Shown: positions 21,691 through 49,147 of the stretch, piece by piece
Layout of the letters: the number at the start of each line of letters is the position of its first letter
Numbering within the stretch: position 1 is the first letter of the stretch
NCBI RefSeq assembly: GCF_006345805.1
Contig: NC_043024.1
Span: 18,848,001 to 18,912,000 of the forward strand
Direction: 5' to 3'
Source: Octopus sinensis
Lineage: Eukaryota
DNA: 64,000 nt
The notes under the pieces: model-generated
Databases searched by the model: none
What the model was told of the DNA's origin: nothing
Seen by the model: the letters and a program-made list of their open reading frames with translations, nothing else
Made by a program: the position numbers and the translations under genes

Positions 21691-21966
21691 AGCAAAAGAC
21701 ACTGCCCAAGGTGCCACACACTGGGACTGAATCTGGAACCTTGTGGTTGGGAAGCAAGTTGCTTACCACACAGCCGTTTTTACAGTAAATGATCAAGTTT
21801 TGAGTGGTTGTATACTGTCAACTTAACGTGACAGTCCCGTAAGGGAATTACACCACCGCTGTTTAGCCCTAGGAAGCATCGACGCTTCCTGTCGGCCTTG
21901 ACACATTTCCTGTGTCCTTATATATTTACGAAGGGGAGACAAACAGCCCCAACAGCTAGGCCTGCA

Positions 21967-22012
21967 TCTAGAGACATGCATGTTTCAGGGTCTTGCCCAT
22001 CATCAGTCTAGA
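21967..22012 (-). ncRNA. Minimal type I hammerhead ribozyme
   Basis: Minus strand: TCTAGA-CTGATGA-tGGGcaagaCCCt-GAAA-CATGCAT-GTC-TCTAGA; palindromic stem III ACATGCATGT. Confidence 0.8.
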
Positions 22013-22642
22013 GTAGCAAGGCCTGCTAGCTGAAGATATCTGTCTAGACTTCGTAAATATATATATATATATTTTCAGGGACTGTCACGTTAAGTTGACA
22101 GTATACAACCACTCTAACGCTCCACCACCGCACATATCTCTATGAGATATTTAGAAATTTAATATTTCTGATCAAGTTTTGATTGGCTGTAAATTTGATG
22201 GCATCTTTTGTTTTCCACTTGGGTGTTTTGATCAACATATTTTTGTTTTGGCGAAGTCCAGTGTTCCGGTTGGTTGATTTCCTTGTTATGTCATCTGTTT
22301 GCTCAACGTTTTCATTTTTTTGTTGAGTACAGTAAATAATCAAGTTCTAATTGGTTGTAACTTAAGTGATGTCATTAATTTTGGTAAAATATTTTTGTTG
22401 TTTTTGGTTAAACCAGAATGTAGAATTTTGCCAAAACAAAAATATTTGACCAAACCAAATGATGTCACTAAAATTACAACCAATCTGAAGTTGATCCTTT
22501 GCTGTGGCCTAAATGAAATATTGATATGCATATATGTATGTGTGTGTGTGTGTCTGCAGATATATGTATGTATGTATGTATATATTTATACACACATACA
22601 TATATATCTCTATATATACATATACATACATACATACATACA

Positions 22643-22678
<36 letters not shown>

Positions 22679-22917
22679 TATACATATATATATATATCAG
22701 AAATATTAATTTCTAAATATCTCATAGAGGTATGTACTGTTGTGGAGCGATAGAGTGGTTGTATACTGTCAACTTAACGTGACAGTCCTGTAAGGGAATT
22801 ACACCACCGCTGTTTAGCCCTAGGAAGCATCGACGCTTCCTGTCGGCCTTGACACATTTCCTGTGTCCTTATATATTTACGAAGGGGAGACAAACAGCCC
22901 CAACAGCTAGGCCTGCA

Positions 22918-22963
22918 TCTAGAGACATGCATGTTTCAGGGTCTTGCCCATCATCAGTCTAGA
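22918..22963 (-). ncRNA. Minimal type I hammerhead ribozyme (second tandem copy)
   Basis: Identical to 21967-22012. Confidence 0.8.
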
Positions 22964-23602
22964 GTAGCAAGCCTGCTAGCTGAAGATATCTGTCTAGACT
23001 TCGTAAATATATATATATATATATTTTCAGGGACTGTCACGTTAAGTGACAGTATACAACCACTCTAACGCTCCACCACCGCACATATCTCTATGAGATA
23101 TTTAGAAATTTAATATTTCTGATCAAGTTTTGATTGGCTGTAAATTTTATGGCATCTTTTGTTTTCCACTTGGGTGTTTGATCAACATATTTTTGTTTTG
23201 GCGAAGTCCAGTGTTCCGGTTGGTTGATTTCCTTGTTATGTCATCTGTTTGCTCAACGTTTTCATTTTTTTTTGTTGAGTACAGTAATAATCAAGTTCTA
23301 ATTGGTTGTAACTTAAGTGATGTCATTAATTTTGGTAAAATATTTTTGTTGTTTTTGGTAAACCAGAATGTAGAATTTTGCCAAAACAAAAATATTTGAC
23401 CAAACCAAATGATGTCACTAAAATTACAACCAATCTGAAGTTGATCCTTTGCTGTGGCCTAAATGAAATATTGATATGCATATATGTATGTGTGTGTGTG
23501 TCTGCAGATATATGTATGTATGTATGTATATATATTTATACACACATACATATATATCTCTATATATATATACATACATACATACATACATACATACATA
23601 CA

Positions 23603-23681
<79 letters not shown>

Positions 23682-47550: not shown

Positions 47551-47814
47551 TACATACATATATACATGAATGTCTGTAGAGAGAGAGAGAGGGAGAGAGA
47601 GAGAGGGAGAGGGAGAGGGAGAGAGAGAGAGAAACAGAGCAATTATATGTATATATGTATAAATATATATATATAAATTATATGTGTATATATATATGTA
47701 TATATATATATATAAATATATAAAATATTATTTGAGACAAAACCACTATTTTGCAAAACAAACAAGGAAAGACTTAATCAATACATAAAATTTAATAAAT
47801 AGTCAAAAAAACCG

Positions 47815-47857
47815 CCACTACAATCGTTTCTTGTCTTGATCGACAATCTTCAGGTGG
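47815..47857 (-). ncRNA. Minimal hammerhead ribozyme in inverted pLTR
   Basis: Reverse complement of 48871-48913. Confidence 0.8.
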
Positions 47858-48870
47858 ACTTCCAATCTAAAAAATCAAAATTTTAAAATATAAAAATAAT
47901 ACTTTTAAATAATTAAAGTATAAATGAAAAAATATAAGTAGATAATCCATATATAACCTATATATAATCCATATCGAAAATATAGACTAATTACCACGAA
48001 TTCCCTAAAAAAACCATGATAAAACAAAACTCTTAAACATATAACGATAAAATCTCCCTTTGCTAAACTCTATAACAAACCTATAAAGTAAACCCCCTAA
48101 CTAAACATTCACACACAAATACACACACGTAAACCACAGACTCACGACTTATACACATACCTATACTAACTTATAAACCTCAATATACACCACAACCCAC
48201 TCCCTCCCCACCACACCAATTAACACATACATCCCAAAACCTAAATAACAAACCCATATACACATTCACACACAAAACACCACTCACACGCAAAACACTC
48301 ACACACAAAAGATACATATACTCCCTCACATATACGCCTATACATACTCACTAACTCGACATATACAACAATACTTACACACCCACAAAAAACATTATAT
48401 ACATTTATGAGCTTTAACTCACCTTAGCATCTCTAACAAACAACTTGCAGTAACCCAATCCCATTCTCTATGCCTACCTCACTACTACACTATTCCATTC
48501 ACATTCCAAGCAACGCTAGTCCACCACCCGGTTATTCACGTGGCAAAACGAACACCACTCAAAAATTATGAATGAAACAATGTAAAAAAATAACCAACAC
48601 CTAAAATAGACAAAATACCACAAATTACCTAAAAAATATTTCTGTACTTTGTTATAGAGTTTAGCTAAGGGAGATTTTATCGTTATATGTTTTTAAGAGT
48701 TTTGTTTTATCATGTTTTTTTAGGGAATTCGTGGTAATTAGTCTATATTTTCGATATGGATTATATATAGGTTATATATGGATTATATACTTATATTTTT
48801 TCATTTATACTTTAATTATTTAAAAGTATTATTTTTATATTTTAAAATTTTGATTTTTTAGATTGGAAGT

Positions 48871-48913
48871 CCACCTGAAGATTGTCGATCAAGACAAGAA
48901 ACGATTGTAGTGG
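48871..48913 (+). ncRNA. Minimal hammerhead ribozyme in 5' pLTR
   Basis: CCAC-CTGAAGA-TTGTCgatcaaGACAA-GAAA-CGATT-GTA-GTGG. Confidence 0.82.
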
Positions 48914-49147
48914 CGGTTTTTTTGACTATTTATTAAATTTTATGTATTGATTAAGTCTTTCCTTGTTTGTTTTGCAAAATAGTGGTTTTGTCTCAAATAA
49001 TATTTTATAATATTTTACTATAAAATTGGATTTAATCCTAAATCTGATTTTTTTTTCCTGTAAATTTGGATATATTCCCTAATATTTATTATTTATATAA
49101 TATTGATAATTTTGTATATTGAGTGTAATACCTCAATTTCGCAAATT

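Follow-up and report, generated by a model that had tools for sequence, protein, structure and literature searches.

It is very probable, in our judgement, that a protein-free superfamily of hammerhead repeats, with units of about 360 nt and one shared layout, populates the Octopus sinensis genome as non-LTR retrozymes, an assignment made because the units are likely copied in trans by a Penelope-like element (PLE) reverse transcriptase-endonuclease. We analyzed a window of 64,000 nt (contig NC_043024.1, positions 18,848,001 to 18,912,000) that contains copies of two types, A and B. Both types belong to one abundant superfamily, whose members differ at about 40% of their sequence and yet pair into a common shape. 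Their cores agree in 122 of 214 aligned columns, and we consider them homologous because the alignment score of 124 lies above all 500 shuffles (mean 61, maximum 83).

The window shows both forms of insertion: an A-type insertion with an inverted, tailed piece followed by a partial and a full unit, and a B-type insertion with an inverted tail and a body. Direct units per window copy number at most 1.3. The features, in window coordinates, are as follows.

7181..8330, plus strand: 3' fragment of a Neptune-type PLE (context), which carries an unrelated pLTR of its own and ends in the (TA)n where the A insertion sits
8611..9398, unstranded: A-type insertion in (TA)n, comprising an inverted piece (8611-8937, minus strand, with tail), a 101-nt partial unit and a full plus-strand unit ending at site 1
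8828..8872, minus strand: second A hammerhead, in the inverted piece (motif scan)
9030..9392, plus strand: A-type monomer, 363 nt
9140..9266, plus strand: A rod, with outer helix 9140-9150/9256-9266 and extension 9167-9173/9232-9238
9181..9225, plus strand: A type I hammerhead, with U3-A8 core UUGAUAA (9187-9193), U-U at the stem II base, 8-nt palindromic stem III and predicted cut after 9219
9270..9326, plus strand: A 3' hairpins, GACGCC/GGUGUC and, inside a GGGCU-closed helix, GGCGA/UCGCC
21794..21801, unstranded: target-site duplication of B copy 1 (partner 22173-22180), 8 nt unambiguous and up to 13 with overlap
21802..22172, minus strand: B-type insertion copy 1, whose body (22077-21802) stops at 3' site 1 and is joined to a tailed, inverted 3' end (22078-22172)
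21862..21897, minus strand: B hairpin GGAAGC/GCUUCC within a short helix closed by GGGCU (fold and alignment)
21900..21917, minus strand: nearly invariant GACAC/GUGUC hairpin of B (fold and alignment)
21922..22060, minus strand: B rod, with outer helix 22049-22060/21922-21933, extension 22026-22032/21953-21959 and hammerhead cap
21967..22012, minus strand: B type I hammerhead (motif scan), with stem I 22007-22012/21967-21972, core CUGAUGA (22000-22006), U-U at the stem II base, 10-nt palindromic stem III and predicted cut between 21973 and 21972
22078..22172, plus strand: inverted copy of the B 3' end with a tail of ~55 nt (3' site 2)
22696..23123, minus strand: B-type copy 2, with a tail at both ends, within a local tandem duplication of ~950 bp
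22918-22963, minus strand: hammerhead of the second B copy (motif scan)
47815-47857, minus strand; 48871-48913, plus strand; 54355-54397, plus strand: hammerheads of a third, unrelated repeat

Besides the two A and two B hammerheads, the motif scan of the window returned two further AT-rich hits. The tandem duplication of ~950 bp (21802-23671) comprises B and its flank at 96.9% identity. At the position of the first copy's target duplication, the second copy carries a tail. The duplication stems either from an artefact of assembly or haplotypes, or from retrotransposition that took the flank along. The flank upstream of B (22180-22520), which holds an imperfect internal inverted repeat and several CCAAT and TGACATCA motifs, had no match among the other fetched loci. 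An inverted repeat (21802-21838/22078-22117) that resembles a DNA-transposon TIR was rejected as such, as it is the inverted B 3' end. The third repeat (47719-49009 and about 53500-54493) has a minimal type I hammerhead and an inverted-pair layout, and at its 3' end it is similar to sequence next to PLE copies (L123, L124).

A sequence-only reading of the window had proposed two diverged hammerhead families with a common rod-like fold. All 13 motifs that it quoted for 21802-22075 (minus strand) and all 14 for 9130-9330 (plus strand) are present in the order given and pair as described, and the MFE folds of both regions contain the outer helix, extension, stem I and downstream hairpins. The proposal of a structured, non-coding, mobile, hammerhead-bearing RNA family, its fold kept across diverged subfamilies, is borne out. 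Several of its details are revised: the elements are longer than the spans quoted, with units of 363 nt (A) and 360 nt (B); AGGAC and GTGTCAAG, read as separate motifs, are two arms of one further hairpin in the folds; and the families are many rather than two, with 27 clusters at 90% among 207 full-length hits in the fetched loci, some of which are damaged or rearranged copies. In the folds of both regions, GGGCT closes a helix around the "downstream hairpin".

First-look searches of the 2.7-Gb genome gave 3113 candidates for B, 1052 for A and 2436 for D, a third relative first met beside a B copy; the best genomic copies are 94-99% identical for B and 95-99% for A. Patterns built on the shared 3' motifs matched 1588 and 2875 times, compared to 14 times for each reversed control. 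Tandem copies give monomer lengths of 363 (A), 360 (B) and 355 nt (D), with a GC content of 0.42-0.46, and direct tandems of two or more units occur elsewhere in the genome. Overall, the 355-363-nt non-coding unit exists in at least 18 sequence variants and thousands of copies. Pairwise identity among the first 11 subfamily representatives is 56-86%, and 16 and 18 natural copies served as representatives in the comparisons below. The longest ATG frames in three insertions span 46-58 codons, with no RT or GIY-YIG ORF.

Contigs covering the A unit, which we treat as no more than a lead to expression, number 54, 21, 5 and 1 in four sequencing runs that are only guessed to be RNA, lack a silent control and are blind to strand and to the distinction between circle, tandem transcript and DNA. 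In the X1 contigs, depth is 813 for a 285-nt variant and 823 for a 360-nt go-back joint; one variant, carrying the 360-nt go-back joint, is dominant in two runs of one study.

Both window regions fold as a long rod with the hammerhead region at its cap, followed by two hairpins. The B stretch reaches -89.4 kcal/mol (z -5.57) and the A stretch -84.2 kcal/mol (z -5.27), with 0 of 200 shuffles as good in either case. An alignment of 16 copies, made from sequence alone, contains the hammerhead core and its three stems; the stems covary, as do the separate 3' hairpins. At the 31 named pairs of this alignment 93.7% of cells are paired and 21 pairs show two-sided change, compared to at most 46.9% and 4 pairs in slid controls, and 0 of 500 shuffles equal the real value; these controls ignore relatedness, and the tested structure was chosen from that very alignment. 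We also applied a tree-aware test, using a background-corrected G statistic and nulls in which substitutions are reshuffled on the tree. With 16 rows, six named pairs rank among the top seven, one of them (in stem I) is the only named pair at E<0.05, and one non-pairing column pair likewise reached E 0.02; with 18 rows including the outer rod, one outer-helix pair stands at E 0.02. Two-sided change affects 21 of the 31 pairs, but only one pair per alignment survives the tree-aware test, and at the present alignment depth the signal is suggestive rather than strongly significant.

An arm-swap test, which requires no column alignment, gave a clearer result, with a mean of -47.2 kcal/mol for arms with their own partners (n=18) versus -22.8 between clades (n=244), in a set of 18 copies that, as for the 18-row test, was hand-picked for intact arms, a choice that favours good folds. 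Inversion artefacts among the best-folding representatives were left out of both the arm-swap and the tree-aware tests. The A and B arms reach -47 and -50 with their own partner versus -16 and -15 when swapped, and the best single partner is the own 3' arm for 12 of 18 5' arms and lies within the clade for 17 of 18. At paired columns G-U outnumbers A-C by 36 to 4 in 368 cells, and the sense duplex is more stable than the antisense duplex in 16 of 18 copies, as expected if the hammerhead-strand RNA is under selection.

On the 3' side of the rod, the GACAC/GUGUC hairpin is the most conserved sequence outside the catalytic core; it is nearly invariant and therefore yields little covariation. Further 3', folds of A, B, D, D4 and E show the first 3' end flanked by the two strands of a helix, and the tail forming a small CUC-loop-GAG hairpin. 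Only in B and D is this 3' domain more stable than its shuffles (z -5.0 and -3.3); A, A4, E and D4, at z -0.2 to +0.6, do not differ from theirs in that way. The sequence-only reading had suggested an RT-recognition hairpin: conserved hairpins do lie 40-130 nt upstream of the fixed 3' ends described below, where they may serve in binding.

Rfam gave zero hits at the gathering score across the whole window, and searches of the A and B regions at E up to 5 returned two chance bacterial hits and no hammerhead. MFE folds miss the hammerhead junction, where the open catalytic core costs about 3 kcal/mol. A U-U at the base of stem II, noted earlier for both window elements, is indeed present in both but is not a family-wide trait: it occurs in 39 of 42 parsed A copies, 8 of 20 B copies and 0 of 24 D copies (43, 23 and 25 examined). 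Similarly, both window elements have the palindromic stem III, which is perfect in only 8 of 15 parsed subfamily representatives (18 examined). The U3-A8 core is found in 28 of 42 parsed A copies, and many cores are variant (U3-G8, U-U). U3-A8 covariation, the U10.1-U11.1 mismatch and a weak stem III have all been described for hammerheads (PMC3088659), and a palindromic helix III with dimer cleavage is also in print (PMC4209133). The ribozyme core, with its U-U, U3-A8 and palindromic stem III, adds nothing new to these published traits. Eight of nine retrozymes assayed in one study did not cleave (10.64898/2026.07.22.740005).

The insertion ends carry the link to PLEs. Our census started from 80 loci found in three DNA searches, of which 8 repeated another locus and were dropped, leaving 72 insertions, whose units are arranged head to tail, truncated at the 5' side or inverted. 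Of 105 outward 3' ends, 97 fall no more than 8 nt from one of two sites, compared to 5 of 39 5' ends. Because the census counted the best full-length matches, one 3' end of each insertion necessarily reaches or passes the end of the query. The two fixed 3' sites are 46-55 nt apart. Both orientations occur in 34 of the 72 insertions, and 24 of 33 double-ended inverted insertions have one outward 3' end at each site. Ends adjoin (TA)4 in 64 of 105 cases versus 8.7% of background windows, a bias that is strong in A (23/26) and D (17/19) and weaker in B (9/27). Copies that extend upstream run into the previous unit, with no LTR layout, and we found no poly(A) or simple-repeat tail belonging to the unit. 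Taken together, the insertions show partial tandems, 5' inversion, two 3' ends with a single tail and a microsatellite target, a layout that has been drawn for PLEs (PMC8557442); the tail has been attributed to a PLE reverse transcriptase that can initiate at either of two internal sites (PMC11167929). From these ends we infer mobilisation in trans by a PLE enzyme.

None of 35 A pieces has its 5' end within 3 nt of the predicted cut. A linear cleaved monomer is an unlikely template because the 5' ends do not pile up there, and their positions point instead to a circle or an uncleaved tandem transcript. In a PLE assay the main substrate was uncleaved RNA (PMC11167929). At one locus (L018, 2895-2967), a 74-nt piece of a D-type 3' module lies at the inversion junction of a third-family copy, and one (TA)n tract contains B, D and the third hammerhead family next to each other. 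Reverse transcription may here have switched templates between two families that share an enzyme.

A different account would make A, B and D the pLTRs, or solo pLTR arrays, of an unsampled autonomous PLE, with the fold as its cis signal; we consider this improbable. Numerous PLEs in the genome combine RT and GIY-YIG domains with the linker zinc-finger typical of Neptune, and just part of its 5029 GIY-YIG candidates was examined, which leaves this account some room, as does the close relationship of Xenopus retrozymes to pLTRs (Li et al., 10.64898/2026.07.22.740005). At one locus (L005) a B copy lies directly behind a degenerate PLE ORF in the same orientation. Against it, pLTRs sampled from four multi-copy PLE families, and from about six more families represented by one copy each, did not match our unit model, and have minimal hammerheads, 30-40-nt tails, TA targets and no such 3' module; the young Neptune-type PLEs have their own tails and TA targets. 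Of 140 element-centred loci, 7 match a PLE protein at all, and at none does an intact ORF continue into the unit; in 97 PLE-centred loci (67 and 30) the unit is never the pLTR, and model hits fall at scattered, single places. The upstream extension of copies, being the previous unit, also speaks against this account. Of the coding PLEs in this partial sample, none has the unit as its pLTR.

L125, L117, L130/L107, L237 and L253 have one match each, placed differently from locus to locus, and these were read as nested insertions; in L078 a B copy with an 8-nt duplication, seen by eye, sits inside an old PLE frame. In the PLE family of the window fragment at 7181-8330, the pLTR contains a minimal hammerhead-like motif and may or may not carry a tail of ~40 nt. 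A very young Neptune-type family (L125 and L246-L260; 99% protein identity, several open frames of 775-777 codons) has a minimal hammerhead with a CCGA core, a U-U under stem II and an optional 30-nt tail, and is a candidate assay partner.

The rod itself could be largely a by-product of PLE inversion and template switching that rewrite its arms, with little selection on the RNA outside the hammerhead. The 34 of 72 insertions holding both orientations would fit this idea, as would perfect inversion-made hairpins across the rod in L089, L163 and L088, but natural rods are imperfect and keep their internal loops, the separate 3' hairpins covary too, and neither the G-U excess over A-C (36 versus 4) nor the greater sense stability (16/18) is predicted by inversion at the DNA level; we regard it as very improbable. 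More improbable still is a SINE-like passenger of a LINE reverse transcriptase with coincidentally PLE-like ends. LINE insertions also show 5' truncation and inversion. Cervera and de la Pena kept LINEs possible as partners (PMC7229834), but two fixed internal 3' ends and a single-end tail are described as unique to PLEs (PMC11167929), and the unit has no poly(A) or simple-repeat tail of its own.

For a retrozyme copied in trans by a PLE enzyme, the following cycle can be proposed. Head-to-tail transcripts would form a rod with the hammerhead at its tip and, on the 3' side, three to four hairpins. Cleavage by the hammerhead would follow, perhaps with two units dimerized via stem III, and the resulting monomers might be closed into circles. 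A PLE protein of Neptune type would then bind the structured 3' part and nick AT-rich DNA, and reverse transcription starting at two internal sites about 50 nt apart would leave one end with a tail and one without. Selection on the RNA template at each subfamily amplification would keep the fold as the sequence drifts. A bolder version, possible but in our view doubtful, is that the superfamily did not arise by trimming of a pLTR but represents an old RNA-parasite lineage of independent descent, which shares no sequence with the pLTRs of the PLEs in this genome and recruits the PLE enzyme via a conserved 3' structural module; this module would comprise the GACAC/GUGUC hairpin, the GGGCU-closed hairpin, the helix bracketing the first RT start and the terminal CUC-loop-GAG hairpin. 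If true, no retrozyme before this one would have had a trans-acting PLE loading signal defined.

PLEs have been the proposed copying partner of animal retrozymes on the basis of co-occurrence and pLTR similarity. Here, a PLE end signature appears in 72 insertions, along with many diverged natural variants of one fold. Such variants mark the RNA parts under selection, and are ready substrates for the existing in vitro PLE assay.

The sequence-only reading could not match the elements to a named family, but their size, tandem layout, canonical type I hammerhead and absence of coding capacity fit metazoan non-LTR retrozymes. Such elements are known from coral, mussel (350-390 bp) and axolotl, with PLEs proposed as partner (PMC7229834). 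Retrozymes are recognized by tandem units of 150-450 bp with GC under 50%, a type I hammerhead motif in each unit and no protein-coding capacity; the octopus units measure 363, 360 and 355 nt and share the hammerhead, GC and non-coding properties. Further criteria are the lack of an LTR, primer-binding site and polypurine tract, a TSD of >4 bp where one occurs, a self-cleaving transcript, and linear and circular RNA of unit length; the octopus insertions have no LTR layout, and an 8-nt TSD flanks B copy 1 in the window. As in the described metazoan elements, the units are short, tandem and non-coding, with one canonical type I hammerhead, GC below 50%, a highly self-paired fold and thousands of copies, and the U-U at the helix II base is shared with axolotl HHR_Amex2 (PMC7229834). 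They differ in sequence and host. Most octopus insertions have 1-3 units, and they show inversions and two fixed 3' ends, features that the sections of that account consulted here do not describe (PMC7229834). The family is undescribed in the cephalopod literature that we searched, though Repbase, Dfam or paper supplements may list it; for giant squid, 235 hammerhead loci have been counted, and nothing more.

Vertebrate non-LTR retrozymes have been tied to pLTRs as non-autonomous PLE derivatives; 24 of 57 families match catalogued elements, and 21 of 22 of these are PLEs (10.64898/2026.07.22.740005). The octopus units have the same proposed partner class and likewise co-occur with Neptune-type PLEs (10.64898/2026.07.22.740005), but here no examined pLTR matches, and the PLE link comes from insertion ends, not phylogeny. 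With Neptune and Poseidon PLEs they share partial tandems, 5' inversion, an optional tail at one end, TA/AT-rich targets and a hammerhead near the 3' end (PMC8557442; PMC11167929; PMC4209133). In contrast to PLEs, the unit has no RT or GIY-YIG ORF, its hammerhead is canonical rather than minimal, and its tail of 46-55 nt is longer than the published 30-40 nt (PMC8557442). The class of element is already known, and we describe neither a new element class nor a new ribozyme variant. No conserved retrozyme 3' module is described in the literature that we searched, and the one found here, adjoining fixed RT start sites, is a useful addition.
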